NCBI GenBank assembly: GCA_003482855.1
Contig: DMXO01000002.1
Coordinates: forward strand, 112,114 to 176,113
DNA length: 64,000 nucleotides
DNA from: Candidatus Magasanikiibacteriota bacterium
Lineage (GTDB): Bacteria > Patescibacteriota > Patescibacteriia > Magasanikbacterales > UBA922
Direction of reading: 5' to 3'
Positions 11,501 through 40,900 of the stretch are shown here, piece by piece (the stretch's first letter is position 1; every line of letters begins with the position of its first letter). Made by a program: the position numbers and the translations under genes. The notes under the pieces are model-generated. The model saw nothing but the letters and a program-made list of their open reading frames with translations. It was not told the DNA's origin and ran no database searches.

Positions 11501-11936
11501 TATAAAATAATAAAAAAAACCACTGTGTCCATTTGTAGTAATCTGGATTATGCGATCCCACTTCCCTATCCCAATCTACAGAAATGCCCAAAGATTTTAT
11601 TTGACTACGAAAATTGTTCACTGCTGTCTCAGTGCTTTTTGCTGGATGTACATTTGTTTTAATTGCGTAATTCTCTGCAGGTAAACCAAAACTATCCCAG
11701 CCAATCACTTGTAAAACTTTCTTTCCAGTCATGCGCTGATATCGCGCGTAAATATCGCACGCTGTATACACTTCCGCATGGCCGACATGAAGACCGCTTC
11801 CGGATGGATATGGGAGCTGTGGAAGAATGTAAAACTTGTTTTCAGAATTAATATCTTCTGGAGTCTTAAACAACTTTTGTTCTTCCCAAATTTTTTGCCA
11901 TTTTGATTCTATTTCTTGAGGATTATACTTCTCCAT
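8520..11936 (-). CDS. leuS: leucyl-tRNA synthetase with two inserted domains (Nudix hydrolase-like ~nt 10377-10814; alpha/beta serine hydrolase-like ~nt 9633-10175)
   Basis: HVGHAEVY (HIGH), TTRPDT...VPAHDERD (CP1 editing), GEGTAINS...RDWSVSRQRFWGAPIP, WHREPDTLDTFMCSSWYY, KMSKR (KMSKS); plus GGMERGETVEDTVQRELREEAGY (Nudix box) and FIHGY...VIVAHSLGG (GxSxG) not found in canonical LeuS; 1138 aa. Confidence 0.9.
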   Translation of the reverse strand: MEKYNPQEIESKWQKIWEEQKLFKTPEDINSENKFYILPQLPYPSGSGLHVGHAEVYTACDIYARYQRMTGKKVLQVIGWDSFGLPAENYAIKTNVHPAKSTETAVNNFRSQIKSLGISVDWDREVGSHNPDYYKWTQWFFLLFYKRGLAYRKKQSVNWCDSCKTVLANDQVKEGHCERCDTLIIQKEMEQWYIKITDYAERLLNDIDKLDWPEETKKRQKDWIGKSEGAEVDFRLQTSDHNQEKKITVFTTRPDTLFGATYMVLAPEHAVVRSLKSEVQNWDEVEKYIEATSKKTELDRQVQKEKTGVELKGIKAINPVKNEEIPIFVADYVLATYGTGAIMAVPAHDERDFEFAKKYNLPIKDVVVQHCGGFDKSAKHRDSAAAVVFKDDKVLVLFNKKFNIYRLPSGGMERGETVEDTVQRELREEAGYTDYEVVDDLGMIESNFYAVDKNIQWNKLQRVLKLKLLSDKKTDTAFESYEDYEANWLAPDEAIEKLKTYNGSEEIFIRRALEKTGRLFSGEGTAINSNFLDGLSTQEAKEKMIQWLEEKGIGKRKVQYKLRDWSVSRQRFWGAPIPMLFNEERKNRKYNYVFIHGYLATGNNDFRPWLKKELEQLGHAVFSPDLPHNDKPNVVEWAEYILNNTTIDENTVIVAHSLGGPVAFRILEKLKNKIAKLILVDTVLRPDFPDKKRPDVEASDSFEFDFEKIKSSSDEFVVIADCDYKTIKKEHLEEMQKLLDARLVKARPNDRHFNGKIEPSVLEESIVTGLKPVSESDLPVLLPDDVDFKPTGQSPLTYSEDFQKGVEKRYGKGWHREPDTLDTFMCSSWYYYRYLDPKNDQQFASPEALKKWMPVDFYLGGPEHVNGHLLYSRFFTKVLYDAGYIDFSAQGGSDLVGDEPFKVHRHQGLILGPDNRKMSKRWGNVINPTDVVNEFGADTMRMYEMFMGPLEEDKPWDTNGVRGIRRFLDKVWNLQEKVIEAEAKSNSLTTLVHQTIKKVGEDVAALKFNTAIAALMQFTNVLLKEEKISKVGYTVLIKLLSPFAPHMSEELWYRLGNKDTVTTQPWPVYDPELTKENTVTLAIQINGKLRDTITVSTDISEEDAKVEALRSGKVIKWLEGKEPKKVIYVKGKLISIVV

Positions 11937-12380: not shown

Positions 12381-13160
12381 TTAATTTTTAAATAATGACA
12401 AAAGTTGTGTGTGTAAATGCTGATTTGCCGCCACAATATCTTGTCTTCCTCGCTTCCACGGATTCCCGTCACTATCTGTAACGACAGCCCCAGCCTCAGT
12501 ACATATCAGATAAACAGGCAATCTATCCCAATCCAAACCTGAGTTTGCGATGACATAATCAAGTGCCCCACTTGCGAGGTAACACATATTTGCAGCATTT
12601 GCAAAATTCACCATAACCATATTTGTTTCTTGGACAGCACGCATAGTCATGACCCGATATCGTTCAAAATAATCTCCATACAAATTTACTGCTTTTGATC
12701 GACGTTGCAAAATTCCATATGCGCCATCAAGTAATTCTGTGTTTTTCACATGAATTTGTTTGTCATTCAAATACGCCCCTTTACCAATTTCTGCAAAAAA
12801 TAACTGTTCTGCCATAGGGAAATATACTGCACTCATAAGAGGCTTATTATCCTGCAGTACAGCCACCATCACCGCCCACACAGGGATACCATGCACGAAT
12901 CCCCATGTCCCATCTATAGGATCAATGACCCATTCATATTCACTGTTTACATTGATATCATCAGCCATTTCCTCACTTTTGATATGATGAGTCGGGTACT
13001 GTGCATTGATTTTTGATACCAAAAATTCACTCACCATCAGGTCTGCTTCTGACAAAAAATCATGCGGATGGCCCTTGGTCATAGGTGTAACCCCTCGCAA
13101 AAAGAATTCTTTTGCTATAGCTCCCGCTTCTTTGATAATTTGTTTCAAAAAATCTTGCAT
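12381..13160 (-). CDS. inositol monophosphatase family protein (IMPase/SuhB/CysQ-like)
   Basis: WVIDPIDGTWGFVHGIP (DPIDGT metal-binding motif), EEMADD upstream; 259 aa. Confidence 0.8.
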   Translation of the reverse strand: MQDFLKQIIKEAGAIAKEFFLRGVTPMTKGHPHDFLSEADLMVSEFLVSKINAQYPTHHIKSEEMADDINVNSEYEWVIDPIDGTWGFVHGIPVWAVMVAVLQDNKPLMSAVYFPMAEQLFFAEIGKGAYLNDKQIHVKNTELLDGAYGILQRRSKAVNLYGDYFERYRVMTMRAVQETNMVMVNFANAANMCYLASGALDYVIANSGLDWDRLPVYLICTEAGAVVTDSDGNPWKRGRQDIVAANQHLHTQLLSLFKN

Positions 13161-13493: not shown

Positions 13494-13522
13494 AAAAAAA
13501 CACCTTCGTCAGGTGTTTTTTA
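13494..13522. terminator. bidirectional rho-independent terminator
   Basis: aaaaaaacacct-tcgtc-aggtgtttttt: 6-bp stem, A-run 5' and T-run 3'. Confidence 0.55.
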
Positions 13523-13713
13523 TATAGCAGTGCCATCTTTCCTCCAGTCCTTCTGTGATCTTTCTGTCTGTTCTTTGGTCAAATGAATAGTTATATGTTG
13601 TACATTTCCATCACCTCTACCAGACTCAAATCCTGGAAAACCTCTATGTTCTTTCTTCGCCTCATCAGAGAGAGTAAGTGTGTCACGTCTTTCTTCAACA
13701 AAGGGTCTATCAA
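13513..13713 (-). repeat. direct repeat copy 1 (~200 bp, ~90% identical to 24376-24571): 3' fragment of a paralog of the small ORF at 24382..24666
   Basis: alignment by eye of 13513-13713 with 24376-24571; repeat edge (…caaagggtctatca) coincides with stop codon of giant gene A (13710-13712); minus-strand reading gives …VDRPFVEERRDTLTLSDEAKKEHRGFPGFESGRGDGNVQHITIHLTKEQTERSQKDWRKDGTAI* in the +1 frame relative to gene A, with no start codon. Confidence 0.7.
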
Positions 13714-16700
13714 CTGTCGTGGTCTTTCTTTTTCAAAACTTCATTTCGTGCAATCAAGCCACCCAAACCACCAGTTTTTTTACTTGAAAAATCCACCTCT
13801 TCACTCTTCTTTTCCTCATAGCCTAGTTTATCATATGTAACATAATACACACTTGGTCCGACAAGAGCCGCATATCTCCCTTTTTTATCGGTAACGCTCG
13901 TCGCAATAAGCTTGTTGTATGCCGCGTCAAATATACGCACCACGACTTTACCAAGTGGCTTTTCAGTTAATGCCTCTAAGACTTTACCAAAGTTACCACC
14001 AAGCTTCTTGCTGGCAAAACGACGAAGCATATCATAGACAAAGATATGGAACACAAGCATAACAGCAATATACCACTTTGGTGATATGATGAAAGACACT
14101 GCAGTTAAAATGACGCCAGACAACGCGAGAGTCTTTTGGAATGTTTGACGTGTGTATTCTTTGATAACTTTTGCTGTAGAATCCACTTTCGTTTCAGGAT
14201 CAAGCGGGATATTATAATTCATCTCAAATTGTTCTTCAGTCACTTCAAATTCTTTGCCATGATATAAATTGATATAGTTGCTGTCTTCATCAAATTTCTG
14301 TAGATATTCACTAAAACCAACAAAGCCGGGCTTTTGAATTTCGATACGATATTTGCCTTCGTCAGCAATGATAAAAAATCGTCCTTGGCTATCAGTAACT
14401 TGCGTCTGTACTACTTGTAAATTTGAGGTATTGACCAAACGCACAGTTGCTAAGTCTATTGGCTGTTTAGTATATGCATTGTATACCACACCCCACTGTT
14501 TTCTCTTGCGTCTACGCAAAAGGACGAGTGGCTGAGTAAAAATATAGCGTAAGTATGCAAGAATATTCGGTAGCTGAAACCCGACTGCAACATTTGCGAC
14601 AGCTATGATAGCGACAGACGGCGCGACAACTTTTTCATTAACTGATTCTACAACAGGATTATTTACAACTCTTTTAATAACTTCAAATGTTTTGCGTGTA
14701 AAATCTTTTATGGAATCAGGAATAATATCAGCTATAGTTTCTGTTATTTTTTTGAAAATATGACCAATGCTGTCCGTTATATATCCGCTTATATCAGTTA
14801 TAACATCGACAAAAGAATTAAAACCAAACTGACTGTCTGAAACATTACTACTGTCTTCTCCCTCTAATCTATCTGTAACATCAGGTAAACTATCATTATC
14901 TTTTTCATCTGCTTCTTCTGATTCGTCCCTACACAAAGACGAACAGCCATCACCTGAAACTACATTGCCATCATCGCATGACTCACCTTTTTCTACAATC
15001 ATATTGCCGCACGCTATCTCAGGTATGATCTTTACAAGCTTACATCTCAAATTACAATAATATCCTTCAGGAGCACTGCCATCGCATGCTTCACTGTCTT
15101 CTTTAATACCATTTCCGCACACTCTTACTATTTCTTCACACACATCTCCAATGCCGTCACTGTCCTTATCCAGTTGGTTAAAATTTTTATGATAGGGACA
15201 ATTATCACAAACATTGCCCACCTTATCTCCATCGATATCCAATTGATCAGTATTAGGAATATCAACACAATTGTCAGCCCCATCAAGCACTTTATCCTTG
15301 TCCTTGTCTTTACAAGTATTGGTACTATCATGGGGACACGTGTCACACAAATTACCAACGCCATCTTTGTCGCTATCCAACTGGCCGGCATTTGATACGC
15401 TTGGACAATTATCAATGCCATCTTGAATGCCATCGCCATCTGTGTCACCAGAACAAATATACAACGCAGGATTTTCAAGGCATTGATCAACGGTAGTGAC
15501 TGGCTTTATACCTATCCCTACCGTATTGCCATACAAGAGAGTGGAATCATTTGGATCAATTACTGCCGCAGCGCTCACAGAAGTCATTGGCGCTTTGACG
15601 CCAAAACGAAGATATATATATTCTGGAAAATCATATAACTTCGCTTTTATACTGCGGTACATGAGAATTGATGTGATGCCTGTCTTTGCAGATGCACCGC
15701 TCCAGGTAGCAGGATAAACGAAAAACTTCTCACCTACATTATTGTCGCTGAATGGTTTGTCACTTATATACACCTCATACTCTGTCGCCTTTTTACACAA
15801 TTGAAATGTAAAATATATATCACCTCTCGAACTATTTTTTACCAACTTCAAAAGACCAGTGCCATCAAGAGGAACTTCTTCGTCAGAGTAAGGTTCCAAT
15901 TTTAAGATATCAGGCGGTGTATCAAGGCATGGATGTTTGGGAGAAATACCTATATATCCTATGCTCGCGCTTCTGCTAAAAATAACATTCCGCGCACCCG
16001 GGGCATAAAATTTTACACAGACAGTCTTGTTGCCTGGGCCATCGGAAAAAGTAAATGGCACACGCTTTGAGGAGCCATTGGGCAAAGGAATTTGATCCAA
16101 AGTCTGTTCTGTATCACATCCTTGCCCGCCTTGTACTTCAAATGGCGTATAATAATGCGTTGCTGAATTGCTTGAAATAGTAAGAAGCACGTCTCTTTTA
16201 TTTGTCGTACTTTCTCCGCCATTTATAACCACAGTGCCATTGGCATCCTGTGGACATGTATTGGTCTCATTGCAATTAGGAGGCGGAGGCGGCGGGGGCG
16301 TAGAAGGGTTCCCGATATTCACTGTCACACCTGATGCATTTACAAAAGATGTTTCTACATCAGCTGTATTTTTTGCTTTTACACGAAATGTATAGGTGCC
16401 ATTGGACAAACCACTAAATATGTACGAAGTACTCGTGACCCAGCCAGAATTTAGAGAGGCATTTGAACTGTCTTCAACATAATATGCTGCGGCTGTGCCA
16501 GACCATGAAACAGTAACATCTTGATTTGCAACTGAAGCACTCAGTGACGACAGGCTTGCCAATGTATAATTTGAAATAGCGTCAGTCGAAGATGTCATTT
16601 CCCCATCTACATTACGCGCTGTCACACGAAAAGAATAACTCTGGTTTGGGGTAAGCCCTGCAAAAGCATAAAAAGCGTCTGCTATCCACCCAGAGTTCAG

Positions 16701-19475
16701 ACCATTGGTTATGTTTTCAGCCAAAAATTCTGCGCCGCTATCACCGGTCCACGATAGTGTGATTTGTATAGCGCTGTCTACTGTCGTAGTTGCCGAAGTT
16801 GGCACATTGGTAAGTGTATATACAGCAGAGGCACTTACATAGATGGTTTCATCGTCACCGCCATTTTTTGCTTTTACTTTGAATTGGTACTGCGTATTTG
16901 CGCTCAGGCCAGTAAACTGATACGACGTTGCCCCTATCCAATCTGAGTTACGACTCGCATCATTGTTGTCCTCTACCCAGTATGATGGTGCATCGCCAGA
17001 CCACGAAACAGTAATAGTACTCGTGCTATTGGCAATGGCCGCAACAGAATACGGAAGTCCGACAGTAGTATAGGCAGAAGCAGATGGTCCATATGCTGTT
17101 ACAGCGCCGTCTCCATTACGCGCCTTTACCTCAATGCTATGCAAGGTATTTGTCACAAAACCGACGGTCGTGGTGCCAGATGCAGCACCAAGTTCTTCGT
17201 ATGTAAACCATACCTCTGCAGCCCCCCACGTAGCATCACTTTGCAAATACAAATCATCTTGTGAATCATGAACTAAAAATTCAGTCCCTGCAGGATTGCT
17301 ATTTGGATTTATGGTGATATCTAGTGTTGTCTCTGTAGGATTGGAAATACTTGGTACTCCTGGTGTGTTTGCAAGAGTAAAAAAATCCAAACTGCTCGTT
17401 GCCGAAGATATTCCATCAGCATTGCGTATATTTGCAGAGGTACTGTACTGCACATTAGGCGACAACCCACTTATAGACCAGCTACTCACTCCTGATTGCC
17501 ACCCGGAACTCGACACGACCGACCCGCCAAATAATGAGATATCAAAATAATAACCTGAAAGGCCTGTGGAATGATTATCGAATGTATCGACTAACAATGA
17601 AACAGATGAAGCACCAAGCGAGCTCGTGGCAAACCCAGATACGGCAGGCGCCAAAGTATAAAAACTTAATTCAGATGTAGAAGAGACGCTACGCCCAAAA
17701 ATATCATACGCCCATAAACTCATATAGTACAATGAATTCCCTATAAGTGAAGAAACTAATACAGTCGTATTTCCTTCCCAGGTACTTGATGCAAAATATG
17801 AAAATGTAGAAGATGTGAGTGATGAACTAAATTCAGTGACCGGAGTAGATGTACTATAATAAATAATATACTCCAAAAAATTTGTATCCGTGGTTGTTGT
17901 CAAATTTACAATAGTAGACGTGGCAAATATAGTATTGGTAGTCAGTGGACCAGGGAGCGGTGATGGCGCCAATGTATCAATGGCAAAAGCAGTGGATGAC
18001 ACTGTCGTTCCATTTACTGTACCATCATTTGGCGTCAAACGAAAATAGACTGTGCTATCATCAATATTTGGCACATCCGCGGCAATGTTCCACTCAAATG
18101 ACAGATCAACAGAACCATCAAGGTTTGTGTCTACGCTTGAAATACTACCTGTCGAAGTGGAGACAGATCCTTCGCTTAAAATAGCACTACCAATAGTTGA
18201 TGAAACCCATGTACTATTATCAAGCGAGTACTCTGCGATAATACTTGTTACATTATTATCTGCATCAGCAATAGTTGTTGTCACGGTAACTACGTTTGTT
18301 AAGGTTTGAGCTGGATAAATGTTGGTAAGTGTGGGCGCAGTGTTTGGATTGGTGTCTACATAACTTAAATAATTAACACTACCCAAATCAGAAGAATTGT
18401 GTGATATTGCTATAACATCACCATATTTTTGTAATTCATGCAAAGAACCCCAATACACGCCACCATCGACTTTCTCTGTGCTCCAAGTACCATTTTTTAT
18501 ACTAAATTTTAAATCATCCGGTACTTCATCAAACCACGCTATCATTGGGTTGCTACCAGCCGAATCCACCCACAAAGACACTTGACGAGCAGATACGGTA
18601 TTAGCAACTTCAGCGCATCCCAAAGAACCGCCGATACTAGCGGTACAGTATTGTAAATCTTGGTCTGAATCAACATATGCAAAATGAATATTATCCGACC
18701 CGTCAACATCCAAACCAATATCACCAACAATAGTGCTGGCTGGCAGATAAGTAACTTTGGCTGTATCATAACAATTCCAATTCGTGTCAGTACAAGTACC
18801 AGCGCCAGCGCCGTTTTTAACCGCGTACCACATACGCGCAGTGGAATACTCATTATAAGCAATAACCGGCACGCCACTGCTGTTAAAGGCCAAACGCAAA
18901 CTCAAACCCAGCTCGTTGGCGATATCATGCACCAAAGTAAAAGTCCAATTAACCGCGGAACCACAATCATTGGCCGTATCGCAAAATCCATAATAAATAT
19001 TTTCATTAGTGGCATAGGTCACACCGACCGTACTGCCAAAAACATCAGCAGAGACGGTTCTCGTAAAACCAGCCCCATTGTTAATACTGACCGCTGACCA
19101 ATTAACCCCATTATCCGATGAACTGGCGACATAAAGGTCGCCGGTCGCATATACACTGTAAAATGTTAATAATTTATTTGTTCCAGCGTAAACTATGTCT
19201 ATATTTTGCATCTTGTCTCCCGTACCAGCATCACTCGTAACCACATGCTCCGCACTTGGTACGCCATTATTGACTGACACATGATAAATTTTATCTGTGG
19301 CTTCGTTTGAATAATAAATTGTATGGATTAATGTCTCTGACTCCATAGCCACGGCTGTTTGTTCCAATCCGACTTCATCAGTGGATAAAGCTACAGTTTG
19401 CCACGAATAAGCATTGCCATAACGAGGCAATAAAAAAGCTGATAACAAAAACGTGATATCTAAAAAAAATAACAT
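13710..19475 (-). CDS. giant secreted/membrane-anchored surface protein (BNR/Asp-box beta-propeller-like N-terminal region, multiple fibronectin type III-like repeats, poly-Pro linker, thrombospondin type 3-like Ca-binding repeats, Cys-rich repeats, two carboxypeptidase-regulatory-like domains and C-terminal TM helices)
   Basis: 1953-aa ORF in track (TTG at 19571); likely start ATG at 19475 (MLFFLDITFLLSAFLL signal-like, GGAAAG SD); SSDNGVNW Asp-box; repeated ...SWSG...Y.F.V.A.N FnIII-like units; DTDGDGIQDGIDNCP / DIDGDKVGNVCDNCP TSP3-like; PPPPPPP; CGNGIKEDSEACDG; VYNAYTKQPIDLATVRLV...TDSQGRF. Confidence 0.8.
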   Translation of the reverse strand: MLFFLDITFLLSAFLLPRYGNAYSWQTVALSTDEVGLEQTAVAMESETLIHTIYYSNEATDKIYHVSVNNGVPSAEHVVTSDAGTGDKMQNIDIVYAGTNKLLTFYSVYATGDLYVASSSDNGVNWSAVSINNGAGFTRTVSADVFGSTVGVTYATNENIYYGFCDTANDCGSAVNWTFTLVHDIANELGLSLRLAFNSSGVPVIAYNEYSTARMWYAVKNGAGAGTCTDTNWNCYDTAKVTYLPASTIVGDIGLDVDGSDNIHFAYVDSDQDLQYCTASIGGSLGCAEVANTVSARQVSLWVDSAGSNPMIAWFDEVPDDLKFSIKNGTWSTEKVDGGVYWGSLHELQKYGDVIAISHNSSDLGSVNYLSYVDTNPNTAPTLTNIYPAQTLTNVVTVTTTIADADNNVTSIIAEYSLDNSTWVSSTIGSAILSEGSVSTSTGSISSVDTNLDGSVDLSFEWNIAADVPNIDDSTVYFRLTPNDGTVNGTTVSSTAFAIDTLAPSPLPGPLTTNTIFATSTIVNLTTTTDTNFLEYIIYYSTSTPVTEFSSSLTSSTFSYFASSTWEGNTTVLVSSLIGNSLYYMSLWAYDIFGRSVSSTSELSFYTLAPAVSGFATSSLGASSVSLLVDTFDNHSTGLSGYYFDISLFGGSVVSSSGWQSGVSSWSISGLSPNVQYSTSANIRNADGISSATSSLDFFTLANTPGVPSISNPTETTLDITINPNSNPAGTEFLVHDSQDDLYLQSDATWGAAEVWFTYEELGAASGTTTVGFVTNTLHSIEVKARNGDGAVTAYGPSASAYTTVGLPYSVAAIANSTSTITVSWSGDAPSYWVEDNNDASRNSDWIGATSYQFTGLSANTQYQFKVKAKNGGDDETIYVSASAVYTLTNVPTSATTTVDSAIQITLSWTGDSGAEFLAENITNGLNSGWIADAFYAFAGLTPNQSYSFRVTARNVDGEMTSSTDAISNYTLASLSSLSASVANQDVTVSWSGTAAAYYVEDSSNASLNSGWVTSTSYIFSGLSNGTYTFRVKAKNTADVETSFVNASGVTVNIGNPSTPPPPPPPNCNETNTCPQDANGTVVINGGESTTNKRDVLLTISSNSATHYYTPFEVQGGQGCDTEQTLDQIPLPNGSSKRVPFTFSDGPGNKTVCVKFYAPGARNVIFSRSASIGYIGISPKHPCLDTPPDILKLEPYSDEEVPLDGTGLLKLVKNSSRGDIYFTFQLCKKATEYEVYISDKPFSDNNVGEKFFVYPATWSGASAKTGITSILMYRSIKAKLYDFPEYIYLRFGVKAPMTSVSAAAVIDPNDSTLLYGNTVGIGIKPVTTVDQCLENPALYICSGDTDGDGIQDGIDNCPSVSNAGQLDSDKDGVGNLCDTCPHDSTNTCKDKDKDKVLDGADNCVDIPNTDQLDIDGDKVGNVCDNCPYHKNFNQLDKDSDGIGDVCEEIVRVCGNGIKEDSEACDGSAPEGYYCNLRCKLVKIIPEIACGNMIVEKGESCDDGNVVSGDGCSSLCRDESEEADEKDNDSLPDVTDRLEGEDSSNVSDSQFGFNSFVDVITDISGYITDSIGHIFKKITETIADIIPDSIKDFTRKTFEVIKRVVNNPVVESVNEKVVAPSVAIIAVANVAVGFQLPNILAYLRYIFTQPLVLLRRRKRKQWGVVYNAYTKQPIDLATVRLVNTSNLQVVQTQVTDSQGRFFIIADEGKYRIEIQKPGFVGFSEYLQKFDEDSNYINLYHGKEFEVTEEQFEMNYNIPLDPETKVDSTAKVIKEYTRQTFQKTLALSGVILTAVSFIISPKWYIAVMLVFHIFVYDMLRRFASKKLGGNFGKVLEALTEKPLGKVVVRIFDAAYNKLIATSVTDKKGRYAALVGPSVYYVTYDKLGYEEKKSEEVDFSSKKTGGLGGLIARNEVLKKKDHDS

Positions 19476-19680
19476 TATTACCACTTTCCATTTTTTATTC
19501 AATTGTCCTAATAAAAATGACATATTATACAAAACTATCCGCCAACAAAAGGAAGATTCCTGATATAACAAATAACCTGTAATACAAGTTCATTTGGTTC
19601 ATGCTAAATTGTGCTTTAGAGATAGTCTTAGAGACAAGAGAATTATATCATTCTTTATGCGCCTCAACAACATAATACTG

Positions 19681-19707
19681 TGCACAAAAATACGCTCGGT
19701 TGAGCGT
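19681..19707 (-). terminator. putative terminator after giant gene B
   Basis: acgctc-ggtt-gagcgt hairpin followed (minus strand) by AUUUUUGU. Confidence 0.45.
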
Positions 19708-19740
19708 ACTTTGTTTATTTTGTCAAATTTACTTTCCACC

Positions 19741-22700
19741 TTACTTCAATATCTCTCCCTCCTCATATATCTCAGTATCTGGAACAGTAACAATGCGGTC
19801 CCAACGGAAGTCGAGCGAGGTGAAGATGAGCTCGTCTTTGATGAGACGCTTCACTTGCGAGGTTTGATCTTGTGGATTTGGTTCAATTCTATAGATGTGA
19901 GGACTATTTGCGTACTTGATCAAGGTATAATCAGGATGGTGAGTGGTATAGTTTATCTCTTGTGCTGTAGTATATTTATCCAAAAGTTGTGTTGAAATAT
20001 CTTCTATCCAATTCCACGCATAATGAAGAGCTTCAAACACGGCTGGTGAAGTAATCCAATATTTTTGTGTACCCAGAAGCAAATAAATCTTTGGGTCAGA
20101 GACTATTTTGACAATAGCGCCATATTGAGGATTGTACAACGGTCCCTTAGGCATGAAACCTAAAGAGTCATTTGGTACTAAATTAAGCTTGGTTTGTGTG
20201 GTATTGTTGACACTGCTCCATGAGGTAAAGTAGGTTTTGTATGTTGTTTCATCTTTGAACGCGCGTCTGGTGCAGTCTTCGGTAATATAGTAGATTGCAG
20301 AGCTATCCGGTATTTTGTAGGCTTTGCCAATGTCTAACGGACATACGCCTGTCTTTTGTTCAGTTGCTTGGCTCACAAACTCAATAGTATCTGAAACAAT
20401 CTTTGTACCGCCTGCTGTTGTGCGAAATTTTACATAGACTGTTTTTACTCCATTACCAGAAGTTAAAATCCATGATTTTGTTTTGCTATATGGTTCAAAT
20501 GATATATTGGTAAAATCATTTGAGTTAGAAATAGCCATCTGCGTTGCGTCTGGTGAATTTAGATACAATGTAACATTTTGAGAGTTGGTCTTTGACAAAG
20601 CTTTATTGATACTCATTTCTAAATCAACAATAGCAGATAAAGTAAGTTTTACTTGCTTACTGTCTGCTGACGCGAGCCTCACAAACAAATCATCTGTTCC
20701 ATCTTTATTTGTGTCCACCAATTGTTCCTCCCCTGCTTTTAATGTGATGGTAATGGGGTCAGATTGGACTGTGACGGTAACATCACCTACTGCGTCTGGT
20801 GAGCTTGCTGTAATAGTATGTGTAGCATTGCCAACAGAGACGGACGTGGGAGTATGAGGAGATATCGTAATGCTTAACGTAGTCGGTGCACTAGAGACCG
20901 GTGTTGAAGGTGCAGAAGGAACAGCAGAACTACCACCACCTGATGTATCGTTGTCTGTAATGGTTACTGTGACAGAGGCAATAGTAGCGCCATCATAGTC
21001 TGTGTCATCGCTCACTGCAGTATGGGTAATTGTAGAGCTATGTGAGCCATCGACTGTGCTATTGTCTGTAGCAGTTACCGTAACGGTTTGGGTAGTATCC
21101 CAATTGGCAGAGGTAAAGGTAATCGTTGATGGTGACACAGATGCCCCTGTAGTAACTGATGGTGTTATAGTTACATTGGTTGATGGTTTTGTCGTAAGAA
21201 CAACCGTATATGTATCAGTCGTACCACCTTCGGTGACAGCTTGGGTGGATTCAGAAACAGTAACAGCTGGAACAGTAGACAAAATAGCCGACGCGGAACT
21301 GGTCGCGGCCGTGCCCGCGTCCGTACCGTCATCAGGTGTTACTTCAAATTTCAAATATTTGCCCGCGTGGCTAGAACTAACAATTGTAGTGGTAGTAGTG
21401 GCGCCGGCAATAACACTATACACACCACCGGAAGTATCAGCTACCAACCAACGGTAGGTTGAACCGCTTTCCAGGTCATCATCGGTGTCAGTAAAAGTAT
21501 AAGTACCGGTCAACGTCTCACCCACGCGCAAAGTACCGGAAATTACTGCATCAGACGCGGTTGGGGCGGTATTACTTGGTACTGCGGCCAGTACCAAAGT
21601 GGCAGTTTTATTTGGTGAATCAAGCGTAAAATTACTGGTTGATGAGGCACTATATGTGCCGTCTCCGGCAAAACTAACAGTGAACGGATTGCGATTTCCA
21701 TTATCAGTATCAATGCTTGAACTGGTCATGATCCATGACAATAAATAATCTGTGTATGGCGTGTATCCGCCCGCGGTAGAAGTGACAGTCTCACTTTGCG
21801 ATCCGCCAGAGCCGTCAGCAAAAGTCATGCCAATATCTGCAAGGCCACTACTCGTGGAAGTCGCAAGACCTCTCGCTTTGAAATACACATTCACATTGCC
21901 GGTGCTCGCGATTGAGCTTGACGCGGATGTAAATGTGACATTTTTCAAATTATTATCTGTTGTCGCGTCAGAATAAATATCATACGCATCGCTAGAAGAA
22001 AATACTGTGCTTGACACATTATTACTTGCAGACGTGCCGTTAAACCAAATACCATAATACCCATCAGTCGTTGTAACATTTTGAATCGTATTTGAATTGG
22101 AGTTGATGAGTTTGATGTTGGAGTAAACTACAGAAGAACCACCAGAAAGAGTAGGTGGGTTCGTATAACCACCTGCAACACCTGTTATGGGTACACTTGC
22201 ATTTGCCAAAGCATCAGCATTGTATGAATATACACCATTACTTAAAGTAAAAACATCTGATGCCCAAGAATCAACGGCTATTGAACAAATTGACTCCCAT
22301 GCTCCTTCAGTAGAAGCTACACTGTCCGGAACCCACATCATCATTTTTACTCCACCGCTATCAAATAATGCGACGTTTATGTTATCAACTCCAAACTCGT
22401 CATATGAAGTAACATCAGTAGCCGAAGTAAAACTAGTCAGATGCACATCTTGTTGACAACCTGCCCCATCATAGTGCAACAAAACAAAACCACCATAAGC
22501 TGCTGCATCGTATGCCGTTTCACCAATAGCTAATGGTGAGTAAGACATAATATATGGAGATACACCTGTAGAACTCGCGTTCTGCACTACCAAATCTTGA
22601 ATCGTGCTATTATCCGCTGAAGACAGTGTAATGCCATTTTGGCCAGAGCCGGCGCTAATAATCGTATTCACGCCCGAGCCGTCTATGGTCACACTGGAAG

Positions 22701-24180
22701 TAGCAATGGTAAATGGACTGTATGTTCCATTTGACAATGACACTGTGTCTCCAGGTTTTAAACTATTAGTCAGGGCAGTGGACATATCTTCCGCGTAAAT
22801 ATTCGCATAGTCAACCACGCCATCATCGGTAACAACTATTGGAGTGTCTGTTAAACGCGTGCACGCGAAAGCGCCAACGTCATAGTCGCAATATAAGCTA
22901 TGCGGAGCAAGGTGCTGGTCATTTGCTGTGCTTGTATCTCCGGTCTTGAACCATGGTCCCGCGGTCGGCGTCTGATGCCCACCTCCGTTAACAAAAGCAA
23001 TAGTCCCACTCGTAGTTGTATTCAAATCAAGATTATAATAAGCATTATTGGCTATATAAGCAGTAAAATTACCATCAGCCCTTTCAAAATATTCTCCTCC
23101 ACCCATTGATGATCCTGATGAGGAATAAAATAAATTGTTGGTGGAAGTAACAAAAACATCATTATTCGCGCCTGCGGTACGCAAACTTAAGCAAGCAGTA
23201 TAATTTCCATCTTCATCTGATAAAACATTACATGTATTATATTGGTAAGTCAGGCTTATATCAGTAAAAGGCCACGATACACTATTACTATTTCCATAAA
23301 AACCGCGCGTACCAGCTGGAATAGTAAAATAATTACCAGAAACAAGCACATTAGTATGTGTCCCTTGAAAAGCACTGATCATTACACCACCATCTCCACT
23401 GCCAAGCGATGTGTTGAGCGTATTGGAAGTAATTGACATATTAGTTGATGTACCAAACTGTATGGCATCACCACCAAAGTCTGTCCAATATAGAGTATTG
23501 GAAGTAATAAGAGCATTATTAGTTGTTGGCAAGTCAATAATACCTCTGTTTGACATATCTACATACCGACTGTATATTTCATTATTTTGTATAGTCAAAT
23601 TATCCATGGTCATGGTTCCACTGTAACCGATTTGCTTCATGCCCGTATTATTGCTAATAGTCCAGCCTGTCACGCTGTTTAGCAAAAAAATAGTGGTCGT
23701 GGCCGTACTCGTCACTGATGTATTTCCAGTGATGAGCACATTATCCGAACCACCAAAAGCAGTGGTTATCATTACATTATTAAGCTGGCAATTTTGCAAT
23801 GTGGAACTATTGGATAATTTAATAGCGCTTGTAAAATTATCATAATTACCTGCAAAAGTAGTTGAAGCAATGGTTGCTTCATTGTGACAATCTATTGTTA
23901 TACTTGAGGTTGGAACAGTAATCGGATAATTCTCGCCAGTTGGATCATAATCTGAATAAACCCGAATGGTATCACCTTCCACTGATGCAGCTAATGCCGC
24001 GGCTATGGTCTGGTATGTGTGACTGGCTCCTACTTCAAGAGTACCCACAGCCTCAACATTTTGTGTATCATACAACTGCGGAATCAAAACACTCAAAATC
24101 GCCAAACTAAAAACAATAAGACCAAGCCAAACATTTTTTATAGCTATATAAAAAATTTTGCCTTTGATAGTGAGAGACAT
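19741..24180 (-). CDS. giant secreted protein with right-handed parallel beta-helix (pectate-lyase-like PbH1) repeats
   Basis: 1479 aa; N-terminal signal/TM (VWLGLIVFSLAILSVLIP); many ...ITSNTL.../NNxI.. beta-helix-type repeats; Ser/Thr/Pro-rich linker; C-terminal ~330 aa domain of unknown type; no LPXTG or C-terminal TM. Confidence 0.75.
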   Translation of the reverse strand: MSLTIKGKIFYIAIKNVWLGLIVFSLAILSVLIPQLYDTQNVEAVGTLEVGASHTYQTIAAALAASVEGDTIRVYSDYDPTGENYPITVPTSSITIDCHNEATIASTTFAGNYDNFTSAIKLSNSSTLQNCQLNNVMITTAFGGSDNVLITGNTSVTSTATTTIFLLNSVTGWTISNNTGMKQIGYSGTMTMDNLTIQNNEIYSRYVDMSNRGIIDLPTTNNALITSNTLYWTDFGGDAIQFGTSTNMSITSNTLNTSLGSGDGGVMISAFQGTHTNVLVSGNYFTIPAGTRGFYGNSNSVSWPFTDISLTYQYNTCNVLSDEDGNYTACLSLRTAGANNDVFVTSTNNLFYSSSGSSMGGGEYFERADGNFTAYIANNAYYNLDLNTTTSGTIAFVNGGGHQTPTAGPWFKTGDTSTANDQHLAPHSLYCDYDVGAFACTRLTDTPIVVTDDGVVDYANIYAEDMSTALTNSLKPGDTVSLSNGTYSPFTIATSSVTIDGSGVNTIISAGSGQNGITLSSADNSTIQDLVVQNASSTGVSPYIMSYSPLAIGETAYDAAAYGGFVLLHYDGAGCQQDVHLTSFTSATDVTSYDEFGVDNINVALFDSGGVKMMMWVPDSVASTEGAWESICSIAVDSWASDVFTLSNGVYSYNADALANASVPITGVAGGYTNPPTLSGGSSVVYSNIKLINSNSNTIQNVTTTDGYYGIWFNGTSASNNVSSTVFSSSDAYDIYSDATTDNNLKNVTFTSASSSIASTGNVNVYFKARGLATSTSSGLADIGMTFADGSGGSQSETVTSTAGGYTPYTDYLLSWIMTSSSIDTDNGNRNPFTVSFAGDGTYSASSTSNFTLDSPNKTATLVLAAVPSNTAPTASDAVISGTLRVGETLTGTYTFTDTDDDLESGSTYRWLVADTSGGVYSVIAGATTTTTIVSSSHAGKYLKFEVTPDDGTDAGTAATSSASAILSTVPAVTVSESTQAVTEGGTTDTYTVVLTTKPSTNVTITPSVTTGASVSPSTITFTSANWDTTQTVTVTATDNSTVDGSHSSTITHTAVSDDTDYDGATIASVTVTITDNDTSGGGSSAVPSAPSTPVSSAPTTLSITISPHTPTSVSVGNATHTITASSPDAVGDVTVTVQSDPITITLKAGEEQLVDTNKDGTDDLFVRLASADSKQVKLTLSAIVDLEMSINKALSKTNSQNVTLYLNSPDATQMAISNSNDFTNISFEPYSKTKSWILTSGNGVKTVYVKFRTTAGGTKIVSDTIEFVSQATEQKTGVCPLDIGKAYKIPDSSAIYYITEDCTRRAFKDETTYKTYFTSWSSVNNTTQTKLNLVPNDSLGFMPKGPLYNPQYGAIVKIVSDPKIYLLLGTQKYWITSPAVFEALHYAWNWIEDISTQLLDKYTTAQEINYTTHHPDYTLIKYANSPHIYRIEPNPQDQTSQVKRLIKDELIFTSLDFRWDRIVTVPDTEIYEEGEILK

Positions 24181-24320
24181 AATGATAATGATAATACAAA
24201 AAACTTTATATATAGTATACCATAAAAAGCAAGTAATACGTATATCAGATACAAAACTGTGGATAATCTTTGCCTGAATTTAGACAACCATTCATCCCCG
24301 CACTCCGGCCAACGTAAGAA

Positions 24321-24354
24321 CTACAACAAAAAACCAACGATTAGATGACGTTGG
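24321..24354 (-). terminator. rho-independent terminator downstream of small ORF 24382..24666
   Basis: ccaacg-tcatctaat-cgttgg followed by UUUUUUG on minus strand. Confidence 0.55.
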
Positions 24355-24375
24355 CATTCTTGTGGGGTTTCCTAG

Positions 24376-24571
24376 TGTTTTTTATATAGCAGTGCCATCC
24401 TTCCAGTCCTTCTGTGATCTTTTAGTCTGTTCTTCAGTCAAATCAATAGTTGTATGTTGTACATTTCCATCACCTCTACCAGACTCAAACCCTGGAAAAC
24501 CTCTACGTTCTTTCTTCGCTTCATCAGAGAGAGTAAGTGTATCACGTCTTTCTTCAACAAAGGGTCTATCA
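24376..24571 (-). repeat. direct repeat copy 2 (matches 13513-13713); lies inside small ORF 24382..24666
   Basis: ~90% nucleotide identity with copy 1; differences include an in-frame 3-nt indel and substitutions of which about half are synonymous in the minus-strand frame. Confidence 0.7.
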
Positions 24572-24666
24572 GCTTTTGGCATATATTTCCGAACATCTCT
24601 TATGGGGCTGACAGGACTAACACGCCTATCTCCAGGTCCTGGTCCTGGTCCTTTAATTTCACTCAT
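24382..24666 (-). CDS. small hypothetical protein (94 aa) with GPGPGPG and RGD motifs; paralogous fragment at 13513-13713
   Basis: MSEIKGPGPGPGDRRVSPVS...ESGRGDGNVQH...; own terminator; conserved in the second copy with frame-preserving indel. Confidence 0.5.
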   Translation of the reverse strand: MSEIKGPGPGPGDRRVSPVSPIRDVRKYMPKADRPFVEERRDTLTLSDEAKKERRGFPGFESGRGDGNVQHTTIDLTEEQTKRSQKDWKDGTAI

Positions 24667-24678
24667 ATATTTGAGAAA

Positions 24679-25959
24679 TTAAGATAATGTTTTTTTAAGT
24701 CCCTGTGCTACACGCTCAATTGCTTTGACAAATGCTGCTGTTCGCATATCAATTCCATATTTTTCTTTAGTATCCCACACTTCGTTGAATGCATCAACCA
24801 TAATCTTTTCTAATTTTTGCAATACATCTACCTCTGTCCAGTGTTCACCTTTGACATTTTGATCCCATTCAAAATAACTCACCGTCACCCCACCAGCATT
24901 GGCCAAGACGTCAGGCACAATAATAATACCCTTTTCCTTCAAAATTTCATCAGCTTCAGGAGTTGTTGGACCATTGGCAAGTTCTACAATAGCTCTTGCT
25001 TTGATATTTCCTGCATTTTCTGCAGTAATTTGGTTTTCGAGAGCGGCAGGTACCAAAATATCTACGTCAAGCTCAAGCAGATCTTCGTTGGTAATATGTT
25101 TGCATGGTCCTTCATGGGGGACTTCACTCAGTGAACACGCATTACCCAGACAATAGCATGCAAGTGGGCTACCTGTCTTTTTTATCTCCTCTACTTTGTC
25201 AGGATCAAGACCATGTTCATCATAAAATACACCACCCTGTGAATCACTCACTGCAACAATTTTATATCCCATGTTATATAGTAATTTTGCCATAAAGCTC
25301 CCTGCATTGCCAAAACCCTGAATGGCAACTGTTGTCTCTTCAGGCTTCATATTCATTTTTTTTGCAAGTTCGCGCACACAATAGACACCGCCCTGAGCTG
25401 TAGAAAATCCTCGTCCTTCAGAGCCGCCTTGTTCTATAGGTTTGCCGGTAATGACCCCGGGGTCAGCATGCCCAACCAATTTTTCATATTCATCACGCAT
25501 CCATGCCATAATTTGTGGTGTGGTGTACACATCTGGTGCAGGCACATCTTTATCAGAACCAATATCACGCCAAATCTTTTGGATATATGTGCGAGACATG
25601 CGTTCAAGCTCACCTATTGATAACTCTTTTGGATTTACAATAATGCCACCCTTTCCTCCGCCCATAGGAATATTGACTGTCGCACATTTCACCATCATCC
25701 AAAAAGATAATGCTTTGACTTCATCAAGCGTTACATTCCAATGATAGCGAATACCGCCTTTGTAAGGGCCAAGTGTATTATTATATTGAGAACGATAACC
25801 AGTGAATATTTTTATTTCTCCATTATCCATCTTGACCGGTATAGAGACAGTCAACACACGCTCCGGCTGTTTCAAGACTTCATGAACATCCTTATCAAGG
25901 TTCATTATTTTGGCCGCTTTATTGAGTTGAGACATGGCGTTTTCAAACGGGTTTGACAT
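24679..25959 (-). CDS. gdhA: glutamate dehydrogenase (Glu/Leu/Phe/Val dehydrogenase family)
   Basis: NIPMGGGKGGI catalytic Lys motif; GFGNAGS Rossmann motif; 426 aa. Confidence 0.9.
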   Translation of the reverse strand: MSNPFENAMSQLNKAAKIMNLDKDVHEVLKQPERVLTVSIPVKMDNGEIKIFTGYRSQYNNTLGPYKGGIRYHWNVTLDEVKALSFWMMVKCATVNIPMGGGKGGIIVNPKELSIGELERMSRTYIQKIWRDIGSDKDVPAPDVYTTPQIMAWMRDEYEKLVGHADPGVITGKPIEQGGSEGRGFSTAQGGVYCVRELAKKMNMKPEETTVAIQGFGNAGSFMAKLLYNMGYKIVAVSDSQGGVFYDEHGLDPDKVEEIKKTGSPLACYCLGNACSLSEVPHEGPCKHITNEDLLELDVDILVPAALENQITAENAGNIKARAIVELANGPTTPEADEILKEKGIIIVPDVLANAGGVTVSYFEWDQNVKGEHWTEVDVLQKLEKIMVDAFNEVWDTKEKYGIDMRTAAFVKAIERVAQGLKKTLS

Positions 25960-40432: not shown

Positions 40433-40556
40433 TGTCAGAGGGGAGGATCGAACTCCCGACCTTAGCGTTATGAATGCTACGCTCTAACCGACTGAGTCCC
40501 GAGGCGAGCTCGGGATCCCGATTCAGCCCCAAGGCTGACATCGGGACTACTCTCCA
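40433..40556 (-). pseudogene. tRNA-Met(CAT)-like second copy with ~50-nt twin-hairpin insertion in D-arm and mismatched acceptor stem (pseudogene or insertion-containing tRNA)
   Basis: revcomp: TGGAGAGTAG-[TCCCGATGTCAGCCTTGGGGCTGAATCGGGA TCCCGAGCTCGCCTCGGGA]-CTCAGTCGGTTAGAGCGTAGCATTCATAACGCTAAGGTCGGGAGTTCGATCCTCCCCTCTGACA; D-arm to 3' end nearly identical to tRNA at 40824-40900 with compensatory T-stem changes; 5' acceptor strand pairs only 4/7. Confidence 0.5.
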
Positions 40557-40822
40557 ATATTATTTTTATCTTCAATAATTTTTTCAATAATAATTCTGCT
40601 TTTCTGTCTCTTTAGCCAACGTTCTCTTTGGTAAGCTTCCTCGATTGAGCTAAACTTTTCAATTTTCTTTAATTCCCAAGGTCTTTTTGTGACTGTAGAT
40701 TTTGATTGTCCACGGTTATGTTCTTTTATCCTTCTTTCAATATTATTAGTTACGCCAATATAAAAACTCCCATGTTTTATACTTTGTAAAAAATATACAT
40801 AATATGGGAGTTTTATACTCAT
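40547..40822 (-). CDS. GIY-YIG nuclease family protein (small UPF0213/YhbQ-like)
   Basis: MSIKLPYYVYFLQSIKHGSFYIGVTNNIERRIKEHNRG: GIY-(10)-YIG, Arg, Glu and Asn catalytic residues; ORF starts 2-3 nt after tRNA-Met 3' end and its TAG stop lies in the 5' end of the downstream tRNA-like copy. Confidence 0.8.
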   Translation of the reverse strand: MSIKLPYYVYFLQSIKHGSFYIGVTNNIERRIKEHNRGQSKSTVTKRPWELKKIEKFSSIEEAYQRERWLKRQKSRIIIEKIIEDKNNIGE

Positions 40823-40823
40823 A

Positions 40824-40900
40824 TTGTGACAGAGGAGGGAATCGAACCCTCGACCTTAGCGTTATGAATGCTACGCTCTAACCGACTGAGCTACTCTGTC
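40824..40900 (-). tRNA. tRNA-Met (anticodon CAT; elongator-type or tRNA-Ile2 lysidine-type)
   Basis: GACAGAG TA GCTC AGTCGGTTA GAGC G TAGCA TTCATAA CGCTA AGGTC GAGGG TTCGATT CCCTC CTCTGTC A; cloverleaf by eye; no GGG/CCC initiator signature in anticodon stem. Confidence 0.8.

Follow-up and report, generated by a model that had tools for sequence, protein, structure and literature searches.

A probable recombination scar around two giant surface-protein genes in a Magasanikbacteria genome

In the stretch of DNA analysed in this study (64 kb, hereafter the window), which comes from an uncultured Magasanikbacteria member living in groundwater, two adjacent giant genes on the minus strand are bracketed by a direct repeat of ~200 nt. 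We conclude that this repeat is probably a recombination scar, formed when a cassette of ~11 kb carrying the two genes entered a backbone of gdh, a small gene, an inositol monophosphatase (IMPase) gene and LeuRS. Such a scar is an ordinary footprint of gene acquisition and not a new system. The first-pass annotation had described the repeat and suggested a recombination or insertion scar; the bracketing repeat was confirmed, with copies at 13513-13715 and 24375-24574, and the synteny of ~45 relatives lends support to the proposed origin. The features of the locus are as follows.

12381..13160, minus strand: IMPase gene, conserved right flank of the putative insertion (Pfam Inositol_P)
13495..13521, minus strand: complete terminator hairpin AAAAAACACCT-GACGA-AGGTGTTTTTT, left arm inside the downstream repeat (terminator scan and fold)
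13513..13715, minus strand: downstream repeat copy, start-less and out of frame, a putative relic of small94 codons 32-94, now in the 3'UTR of giant gene 1
13710..19571, minus strand: giant gene 1, 1953 aa from a TTG, with fn3, TSP3, Cys-rich repeats, CarboxypepD_reg and three C-terminal TM segments
19741..24180, minus strand: giant gene 2, 1479 aa, a secreted or N-terminally anchored beta-helix protein (NosD/PbH1-type)
24328..24354, minus strand: putative replacement terminator after small94 (CCAACG, 9 nt, CGTTGG, T6; from sequence, hairpin in the RNA fold)
24375..24574, minus strand: upstream repeat copy, comprising small94 codons 32-94, the stop codon and AAAAAACAC (only the left arm of the presumed ancestral terminator)
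24382..24666, minus strand: small94, intact 94-aa gene 12 nt after gdh (ORF; apparently native, fast-evolving, predicted disordered)
24679..25959, minus strand: gdh (glutamate dehydrogenase), conserved left flank of the putative insertion (Pfam ELFV_dehydrog, NCBIfam GdhA)

Probable insertion into a conserved backbone

We compared the locus across related genomes, as the first-pass annotation had proposed. The order IF2-DUF4349-gdh-(IMPase)-LeuRS is kept in ~45 related Magasanikbacteria loci, in most of which IMPase or LeuRS comes 0.1-1.3 kb after gdh, versus 11.5 kb in the window. Sixteen of the related loci have IMPase, 8 nt to 3.2 kb after gdh (<1.2 kb in 14 of them). The cassette is absent from all ~45 related gdh loci, and tblastn with giant 1, giant 2 and small94 found none of them there. 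Judged from this syntenic absence, the giants appear to be an insertion between gdh/small gene and IMPase, and the downstream repeat copy a displaced relic. The ancestral state is drawn from distant synteny only, because we found neither a donor nor a close relative without the cassette (no gdh exceeds 82% identity). The genome and metagenome collections that we searched do not contain the host species, and metagenome scans by protein and by a 37-nt invariant core gave zero matches.

The small gene after gdh

The upstream repeat copy had been described as the 3' part of an intact 94-aa ORF, and it does correspond to codons 32-94 of small94. This gene was an orphan in the 5.8 G and 1.84 G protein searches, and a word-based search recovered only its own 90% cluster of two members. 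Exhaustive phmmer added only P0002, a tail-fibre-like repeat protein of 2151 aa, which we judged spurious as a homologue, since its score only adds up weak matches to a 'DTxFLxQKRDTxTLSN' unit. The domain database searches recommended for all three proteins found domains in the giants and none in small94: no family or fold was found in Pfam or NCBIfam, and neither a lenient Pfam scan of all six members of the small94 family nor a PDB profile search gave anything. The AF2 model is of low confidence (pLDDT 63) and mostly coil.

The top phmmer matches to small94 are small ORFs located directly after gdh in related loci (L029, L028, L023, L046 and L092), and in several relatives a small, Pro-rich and charged ORF immediately follows gdh. 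Given these positional homologues, small94 appears to be native to the locus. The ORF of L029 matches residues 6-52 of small94 (E = 2.8e-5) and thus spans the repeat boundary at residue 32, which argues that the intact gene is the ancestral unit.

Two giant genes of chromosomal type

The ORFs of 1953, 1479 and 94 aa were all recovered as claimed previously. For giant 1, gene callers place the start at an ATG at 19523, 16 codons in, and the resulting product of 1937 aa is probably the correct one. Among the domains proposed for this protein, fn3, TSP_3, CarboxypepD_reg and Cys-rich repeats (myxo_disulf_rpt/DUF4215) were recovered in Pfam and NCBIfam, while the Asp-box propeller is doubtful, with one S.D.G..W motif and no BNR match in Pfam. 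Its proposed C-terminal TM anchors agree with three C-terminal hydrophobic segments, accompanied by one at the N-terminus. Giant 2 has an N-terminal hydrophobic segment only, and its assignment as a beta-helix (PbH1) protein is borne out by a match to NosD (PbH1-type) in Pfam/NCBIfam. The spaces between ORFs inside the block are only ~170-200 nt.

The closest homologues of the giants occur in other Magasanikbacteria at unrelated loci (between fusA and trmD in L098, and elsewhere in L101), and no flanking repeats were found around them in either locus. GC3 and RSCU of the cassette equal those of the host genes, so no compositional foreignness was found by these two measures; the donor may therefore have been a close relative, or the event may be old. 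Viral contigs contained neither relatives of either giant nor a copy of the repeat, and no plasmid-like relatives were found.

The stop of giant 1, TGA(TAG), is built from repeat bases. Two homologues (P0004 and P0006) carry a ~55-aa longer tail with a shared end motif that is missing from giant 1. These observations suggest that giant 1 was truncated; the case is suggestive only, because a third homologue (P0005) also ends early.

Divergence of the two repeat copies

A repeat search resolved the pair into a main block of 173 nt (13543-13715 vs 24402-24574, 94% identity) and an adjoining block of 30 nt (13513-13542 vs 24375-24404, 97%). By BLAST, the copies align over 200 nt at 93% identity with 11 mismatches and one gap, the latter a 3-nt indel in the MAFFT alignment, and they are ~90% identical at the protein level. 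Within the window the 200-nt unit occurs only twice, and the only other long repeat is a tRNA-Met duplicate. The two-copy arrangement is not an assembly artefact, because each copy is found again, with fixed diagnostic bases of its own, in independent assemblies from ENA, NCBI, JGI and Logan.

About half of the differences had been called synonymous, and the count agrees: six synonymous, five non-synonymous and one in-frame codon indel. The 11 substitutions are a mixture of transitions and transversions (T/C, A/G, G/C and others), and their pattern tracks the reading frame. For the pair, dN/dS is 0.21 and dS is 0.17. Tested against full neutrality, this dN/dS gives P = 0.016; the excess at third positions does not reach significance by itself (P = 0.12), and neutrality of one copy since the event gives P ~0.15 by a hand binomial estimate. 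By dN/dS, and not by third-position excess, the earlier claim of a present or recent coding role thus stands for the upstream copy and, historically, for the pair. The dN/dS and dS values together with the in-frame indel fit a history in which both copies were coding for much of their divergence. These data would be accommodated alike by a crossover with a homeologous donor and by duplication in situ, without separating the two.

Terminators and the downstream copy

A hairpin plus T-run follows each copy, and the two differ, as noted previously. The upstream copy retains only the left arm of a terminator, while the downstream copy has the whole hairpin (13495..13521), which we take to be the ancestral terminator of the small gene, now probably terminating the giant operon. 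The sequence around the hairpin at 24328..24354 belongs to the cassette side and bears no relation to the downstream flank.

The downstream copy starts at the TGA of giant 1 (13712-13710) and reads in the +1 frame as DRPFVEE...DGTAI followed by a stop, with no start codon, as had been described. In this frame a stop lies 7 codons upstream of the junction, and 63 codons run without an in-frame stop to the relic's own. If the relic were translated, its specific peptides would include EHRGFPGFESGR and GDGNVQHITIHLTK, and the junction would read KDHDS-DRPFVEER.

One alternative is that a programmed +1 frameshift or recoding event appends the relic to giant 1 as a C-terminal extension, a domain shared with the free small protein. 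The open small-gene frame, the in-frame indel, the dN/dS below 1 and a UAG directly after the UGA stop would agree with this idea. A check for such a site, which had been proposed earlier, came out negative: no +1 slippery motif was found, the AGU-UGA-U context is not a known +1 shift site, and an A AAA AAG-like run (G AAA AAG) leads to -1, the wrong and not the homologous frame. Moreover, the repeat peptide shows no relationship to the tails of P0004, P0005 and P0006, exhaustive phmmer found it in no large protein, and 63 intact codons are expected by chance given so few substitutions. We therefore regard recoding as very improbable; the relic is most likely untranslated and would have no coding function of its own.

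Proposed course of the insertion

Several observations match what is expected of an insertion-duplication: direct repeats of chromosomal sequence flank the insert, one copy joins the native 5' part while the other is 5'-truncated and joins the native downstream flank, and the insert is absent at the same syntenic position in ~45 relatives. The ancestral order would have been gdh, small gene, terminator (AAAAAACACCT-GACGA-AGGTG-T7) and IMPase. Integration would have duplicated the segment from codon 32 of the small gene through the left arm of its terminator. The upstream copy would then complete a functional small gene, followed by cassette sequence with a new terminator; the downstream copy would persist as a displaced, untranslated relic that begins where giant 1 ends, forms its 3'UTR and supplies the ancestral terminator. 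No dedicated recombinase would have been involved, and gene conversion between the copies probably continues in the natural population.

The route that we favour, although we hold it tentatively and at a little less than even probability, is that DNA of a related Magasanikbacterium was taken up and a single RecA-type (Campbell-type) crossover took place within the ~200-nt homology. The donor DNA would have carried a homeologous piece of the small gene together with the giants, and would have been circularised or anchored on one side. The genome encodes ComEC and genes of a type IV pilus; ComEC, PilM, a prepilin and a prepilin peptidase all lie nearby, within 10 kb, and natural transformation is therefore a plausible route. 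A less probable course, to which we still give appreciable weight, is that two staggered illegitimate joints made the duplication in situ and that the copies diverged later.

Variation in the population and alternative explanations

The first-pass annotation had also offered that the repeats mediate cassette exchange or variation of the locus, for which the evidence is limited. Over 1832 nt, the metagenome contig L001 departs from the window at four positions only. They coincide with the first four diagnostic sites, and each carries the base of the downstream copy. This clean conversion tract shows that the copies recombine; an assembly chimera could in principle produce the same mosaic, but it would need two switches across identical stretches of 32-38 nt. 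On the other hand, the ~20 contigs at either flank included no form in which the cassette was excised or missing. The contigs with exact small94 (19) or IMPase (22) either have the parental junctions or stop within or close to the block.

A functional recombination module, with repeats kept for reversible loss and gain (circular excision and homologous reintegration) or conversion-based variation of the giant surface-protein locus, appears unlikely. Direct repeats of this length suffice for RecA recombination, the L001 tract shows an interaction between the copies, and a 25-nt deletion that inactivates giant 2 in another population variant (L006) indicates that the locus varies. Nevertheless, parental flanks were found in 7/7 upstream-copy and 9/9 downstream-copy contigs, no gdh-small-IMPase deletion contig was found, and the two-member 90% cluster contains no hybrid small protein. 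No flanking repeats occur at the other giant-gene loci of relatives, a divergence of 6.5% lowers recombination efficiency, and there is no sign of selection for the repeat as such. Under excision, the deletion junction would consist of gdh, a hybrid small gene, AAAAAACACCTGACGAAGGTG and IMPase, and the circle junction of the giant 1 3' end, the repeat and TAGGAAACCCC. A bolder version, which we consider distinctly unlikely, is that the repeats are a recombinase-free mobility device: the giant adhesin cassette with one repeat would excise as a circle and re-enter relatives with the gdh-linked small gene, or, in a variant, the relic would be translated by +1 recoding as a giant-protein tail. If this were true, CPR populations could switch and share giant surface proteins, and the L001 tract would be a visible trace of the process.

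Integrase islands and prophages duplicate the 3' end of their target gene, as phage 21/e14 does at icd and as islands do at tRNA/tmRNA genes. By analogy, an integrase could have integrated an island into the 3' part of the small gene with a replacement 3' end, the repeats being attL/attR. The locus resembles such elements in having an intact target at one end and a 5'-truncated partial duplicate of its 3' part at the other, with mostly conservative differences. This genome does carry scars of mobile elements, since in the same window a GIY-YIG remnant is flanked by a tRNA-Met and its 5'-truncated duplicate. Unlike integrase islands and prophages, however, the block (two giant ORFs) contains no integrase, excisionase or other mobility gene; no integrase, transposase, RT or other mobility gene was found among the Pfam-annotated neighbours from 2.4 to 34.7 kb; and phage, viral or plasmid-like relatives and presence/absence polymorphism were not found. 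A region of odd composition at 36-40 kb was considered as a source of a recombinase, and it encodes TruB and RNase Y instead. Integration by a site-specific element is thus improbable. The reading that we judge least probable, and largely refuted, is a non-coding functional element (a regulatory RNA, a REP/MITE-like repeat or a DGR template/variable pair) overlapping the small ORF by chance. Both copies do lie just upstream of a terminator. Against it, a generic intergenic repeat is rejected by the finding of just two copies within 64 kb and of none when viral and metagenome sequences were scanned, and no terminal inverted repeats were found; a structured RNA, by the lack of an Rfam match and by fold z-scores near 0 (-0.16 and +0.50); and a DGR (TR/VR pair), by mixed mismatches that are not adenine-specific and by the absence of an RVT domain or RT gene among the neighbours. 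The substitutions also follow the reading frame.

Comparison with known systems

In E. coli, a single crossover with a circle carrying truncated lacZ yields direct duplications of 109-950 bp that flank the insert, and such duplications were commoner than true homology-facilitated illegitimate recombination (HFIR) (PMC3240628). Our locus is similar in that a few-hundred-bp duplication of a chromosomal gene flanks the insert, one copy is 5'-truncated and no site-specific recombinase is needed. It differs in being a natural event in an uncultured CPR bacterium, in an insert of two chromosomal-type giant genes rather than a plasmid, in copies that are 6.5% diverged (homeologous donor or age) and in a circular intermediate that is inferred here.

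In T6SS and Rhs loci, an incoming module shifts start-less 3' ends downstream (PMC5361080). As in HFIR and the displaced 3' ends of these T6SS/Rhs/CDI arrays, upstream homology would anchor the module, the far end would be illegitimate and a start-less 3' end is retained, in a host with natural-competence machinery. Unlike in those arrays, the displaced end is ~90% identical to the retained one rather than a different toxin tip, there is no toxin/immunity logic, and the displaced piece lies 11 kb off behind unrelated giants. An orphan 3' module of a polymorphic toxin was also rejected as an identity for the repeat (no toxin/immunity domain, ~90% identical protein copies, small protein predicted disordered).

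The giants themselves resemble other giant surface proteins of CPR/Patescibacteria. Four Magasanikbacteria proteins (P0008, P0009, P0018 and P0020) show the same mosaic of fn3, TSP3, beta-helix and CarboxypepD_reg domains at variable chromosomal positions; identity to them is 30-63% over parts of the proteins, and the other loci examined have no flanking repeat.

Implications

This locus does not change current understanding. For annotators, it is a warning that a start-less fragment of this kind should not be mistaken for a gene, for a site of frameshifting or for a new type of repeat. The analysis also identified a gdh-linked family of small proteins in Magasanikbacteria that evolves fast and is predicted to be disordered. 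The scar would record both junctions, loosely date the event (dS ~0.17) and show ongoing gene conversion in the aquifer population. Taken as a probable insertion, it offers a clean natural example of how an uncultured CPR bacterium with a reduced genome may gain ~11 kb of giant surface genes without mobile-element machinery.

Organization of the giant-gene locus

The first-pass annotation described two adjacent giant genes bracketed by a direct repeat derived from a small protein-coding gene, and this description held nearly word for word. The repeat (13513-13715 and 24375-24574) encloses both giant ORFs, and the block is flanked by a 94-aa ORF directly after gdh and by an inositol monophosphatase (IMPase) gene.

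Features of the giant-gene locus
12381..13160, IMPase gene, one flank of the giant pair
13513-13715, downstream repeat copy, in direct orientation relative to the upstream copy
13710..19571, minus strand, giant 1 (1953 aa, ORF call)
19741..24180, minus strand, giant 2 (1479 aa, ORF call)
24375-24574, upstream repeat copy, in direct orientation relative to the downstream copy
24382..24666, small gene (94 aa, ORF call), other flank of the giant pair

Gaps between ORFs within the block are only ~170-200 nt. Repeat detection resolved the repeat into a 173-nt block at 94% and a 30-nt block at 97% identity; over 200 aligned nt the copies are 93% identical and differ by 11 mismatches and a single 3-nt indel. 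Read along the coding strand, the upstream copy comprises codons 32-94 of the small gene, its stop codon and nine further bases. The downstream copy begins at the TGA (13712-13710) of giant 1, whose TGA-TAG end is built from repeat bases (T|GATAGA), and continues in the +1 frame as DRPFVEE...DGTAI*, with a stop seven codons upstream and no start codon. An assembly artefact was rejected since the arrangement recurs, with the upstream copy on seven contigs and the downstream copy on nine (ENA, NCBI GCA_001783195.1, JGI and Logan), and the diagnostic bases of each copy are fixed across these contigs.

The only other long repeat in the window is a tRNA-Met duplicate. An intact tRNA-Met(CAT) has a second copy, truncated at its 5' end, 330 nt downstream (40441-40498 and 40826-40900, both on the minus strand; 85% identity over 80 nt). 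The truncated copy matched only positions 9-63 of the Rfam tRNA model (30.9 bits) and was not called by ARAGORN. The spacer (40500-40825) encodes what remains of a GIY-YIG nuclease (Pfam PF01541, E = 3.8e-14), with no start codon and without the first ~10 profile positions. This pair is a second scar of the "intact gene plus displaced 3' fragment" type, for which a small mobile or homing element is probably responsible.

Comparison with related loci

The first-pass annotation had proposed comparing this locus across relatives. We carried out a Gdh-anchored scan of species-representative genomes, a collection without the organism's own species, which mainly matched Candidatus Magasanikbacteria (CPR/Patescibacteria; best Gdh identity 82%). 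Searching window proteins against these loci by tblastn revealed a conserved backbone of IF2, (orf266), DUF4349, gdh, (IMPase) and LeuRS; downstream of gdh, 45 loci have LeuRS and 16 have IMPase. The cassette was absent: the post-gdh gap was 0.1-1.3 kb in most related loci versus 11.5 kb between gdh and IMPase in the window, and neither giant nor the small protein had a tblastn match at any related gdh locus. These data identify the giant-gene block as a lineage-specific insertion into conserved synteny. GC3 (0.33) and RSCU correlation (0.82-0.88) of the cassette are the same as those of neighbouring housekeeping genes, which would point to a close relative as its source or to an old event.

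The LeuRS-like synthetase of the window (8520-11936, minus strand, 1138 aa) carries NUDIX and alpha/beta-hydrolase (Abhydrolase_1/Ser_hydrolase) Pfam matches inserted between the synthetase core and the anticodon-binding domain. In one assembly (L009), this gene is divided into 462-aa and 670-aa genes.

The small gene after gdh

Groundwater metagenomes, among them the Rifle "ANAN16" assemblies, yielded 19 contigs that encode the exact small protein. A word-indexed search covering 5.8 billion proteins found nothing outside its own 90% cluster, and exhaustive phmmer against 1.84 billion representatives added only one repetitive tail-fibre-like protein (P0002), regarded as spurious because its score sums weak repeat matches. 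The protein is thus an orphan. Several relatives nevertheless possess a small Pro-rich, charged ORF starting ~10-40 nt from the gdh stop. When all 174 ORFs in the post-gdh gaps of related loci were compared with the small protein by phmmer, first-after-gdh ORFs made up five of the six best matches.

Small post-gdh ORFs in related loci
L029:11239-11424
L028:11239-11424
L023:11279-11623
L046:8542-8859
L092:11274-11507

The L029 ORF aligned to residues 6-52 (E = 2.8e-5), sharing the core "..DRP(F/Y)....DT(L/V)T(L/I)S.EA..". Since this match extends across residue 32, where the repeat boundary falls, the gene that is intact upstream is the ancestral unit, and the copy downstream is a truncated derivative. 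The small gene is native and not a by-product.

These proteins (61-114 aa, Pro-rich, charged, encoded right after gdh in several Magasanikbacteria, core "DRP(F/Y)...DT(V/L)T(I/L)S.EA") form a previously undescribed, very fast-evolving and probably disordered family. No relatives of the family were present in Pfam, NCBIfam or PDB, and the AlphaFold model of the 94-aa protein is largely coil, with a single helix at the C terminus (pLDDT 63, pTM 0.18). A recognisable Shine-Dalgarno motif was found in none of 16 genes inspected (30 nt upstream of starts, 4-35 kb), whose upstream regions are merely AT-rich, so its lack in the small gene is normal for this host. Translation start in this Magasanikbacterium appears to proceed largely without Shine-Dalgarno pairing.

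The giant proteins

Domain searches recovered the fn3, TSP_3, CarboxypepD_reg and Cys-rich repeats claimed for giant 1, and a NosD (PbH1-type) match agreed with the beta-helix assignment of giant 2; for the "Asp-box propeller" also claimed in giant 1, the sole support was one S.D.G..W motif. Giant 1 carries a hydrophobic segment in its N-terminal part and three in its C-terminal part, giant 2 an N-terminal one only. The closest homologue of giant 1 (P0004) shares 37% identity with it in the N-terminal 850 aa and 63% in the C-terminal anchor. It and another homologue (P0006) run ~55 aa past the conserved "...GGLIARNE.L" to a common terminal motif, "KLR(D/E)(V/I)A(Q/E)YG..(D/E)S", and giant 1 ends six residues past the conserved point. 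This suggests that the junction clipped its tail, but is not proof because a further homologue (P0005) likewise ends early.

Giant-gene loci of relatives occupy other positions (the fusA-trmD interval in L098, elsewhere in L101) and have no flanking repeats, so the repeat is not a general device of giant cassettes. A perfect 55-nt tandem-like direct repeat with 90-nt spacing (L101:15606-15750) lies just downstream of a giant 2 homologue (P0017).

A 25-nt deletion in giant 2 (window-equivalent 23696-23720) was observed in one population contig (L006, JGI 3300025081), with a 2-nt CA microhomology at its edges. The resulting frameshift near codon 154 breaks the ORF into a 158-aa and further fragments; the beta-helix giant is thus dispensable in at least some cells.

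Junctions and divergence of the repeat copies

The downstream copy continues into an intrinsic terminator with its hairpin complete, AAAAAACACCT-GACGA-AGGTGTTTTTT (13521-13495); the left arm of the hairpin lies inside the repeat. The upstream copy keeps this left arm only (AAAAAACAC), beyond which follow unrelated sequence with a different hairpin (CCAACG, 9 nt, CGTTGG, T6; 24354-24328) and then the upstream region of giant 2. We infer that the downstream flank is the ancestral terminator of the small gene and that the 3' boundary of the upstream copy is a breakpoint within it.

The copies differ by six synonymous and five non-synonymous changes and one in-frame codon indel (Nei-Gojobori dS = 0.168, dN = 0.035, dN/dS = 0.21). 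So few non-synonymous changes have P = 0.016 if both copies were neutral; the third-position excess by itself (6/11) is not significant (P = 0.12). A history with one copy constrained and one neutral may also account for them (P ~0.15, binomial estimate by hand). The substitution data fit both copies having been coding for most of their divergence, a pattern that points to a homeologous donor.

One population contig (L001; JGI 3300025154, Ga0209417_1062666; 1832 nt, window-equivalent 24776-22945) differs from the window at only four positions, 24541, 24520, 24506 and 24490, and these coincide exactly with the first four diagnostic sites in the repeat. All four carry the base of the downstream copy, and the other seven sites and the indel are in the upstream state. 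One of the four changes results in R54H in the small protein of this contig (P0001). This contig most likely represents a gene-conversion tract of 52-120 nt; a double-switch assembly chimera is less likely. The repeat copies thus still interact in the population. No contig joins gdh and the small gene to IMPase as a crossover product would, and no hybrid small protein is present in the 90% cluster (two members). Logan contigs break within the repeat.

Origin of the locus

Several other readings of the repeat were considered. No integrase, transposase or reverse transcriptase was found in or near the block, and a DGR was rejected because the mismatches are of mixed kinds and not adenine-specific. 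The repeat had no Rfam family and gave no folding signal above that of shuffled sequence (z = -0.16 and +0.50), and viral contigs contained no relatives of either giant or of the repeat. A programmed frameshift at the giant 1 stop, raised by the first-pass annotation, failed on mechanistic grounds: reaching the homologous frame takes a +1 shift, AGU-UGA is no +1 shift site, and the sole run that looks slippery, G AAA AAG, would lead into the -1 frame. It also failed on conservation, because the tails of giant homologues are unrelated to the repeat peptide. Nothing indicates that the downstream copy is translated.

Together, the syntenic insertion, the duplicated 3' 200 nt of a native small gene, the broken and intact terminators and the lack of a recombinase define the locus as an insertion-duplication scar. 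DNA from a related Magasanikbacterium may have brought part of its own small gene together with the giants and, circularised or anchored one-sidedly, integrated by a single homologous crossover. Alternatively, the target could have been duplicated in situ by two staggered illegitimate joints. We favour the homologous crossover on three grounds: the divergence is of the coding type, the indel is in frame, and genes for ComEC, PilM, a prepilin and prepilin peptidase all lie within 10 kb. Experiments have documented such a crossover: in E. coli, when a circular molecule bearing a truncated lacZ segment recombined with the chromosome by a single crossover, direct duplications of 109-950 bp flanked the insert, and this outcome was commoner than true homology-facilitated illegitimate recombination (PMC3240628). 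In the model proposed for T6SS/Rhs arrays, an incoming module shifts the start-less 3' end of the resident gene downstream (PMC5361080). By either route, the downstream copy would now serve as the 3'UTR of giant 1 with the ancestral terminator.

The architecture resembles what integrases produce when they duplicate the 3' end of a gene as att sites, although the defining integrase is absent here. It also resembles the orphan 3' modules of toxin loci, whereas here the copies are ~90% identical and no toxin/immunity logic is evident. It is very improbable that the cassette is mobile without a recombinase or that the relic is recoded. The locus fits a known category, the Campbell-type or illegitimate insertion-duplication scar; what is new is the instance of such a scar in a CPR bacterium, together with population-level conversion between its copies.
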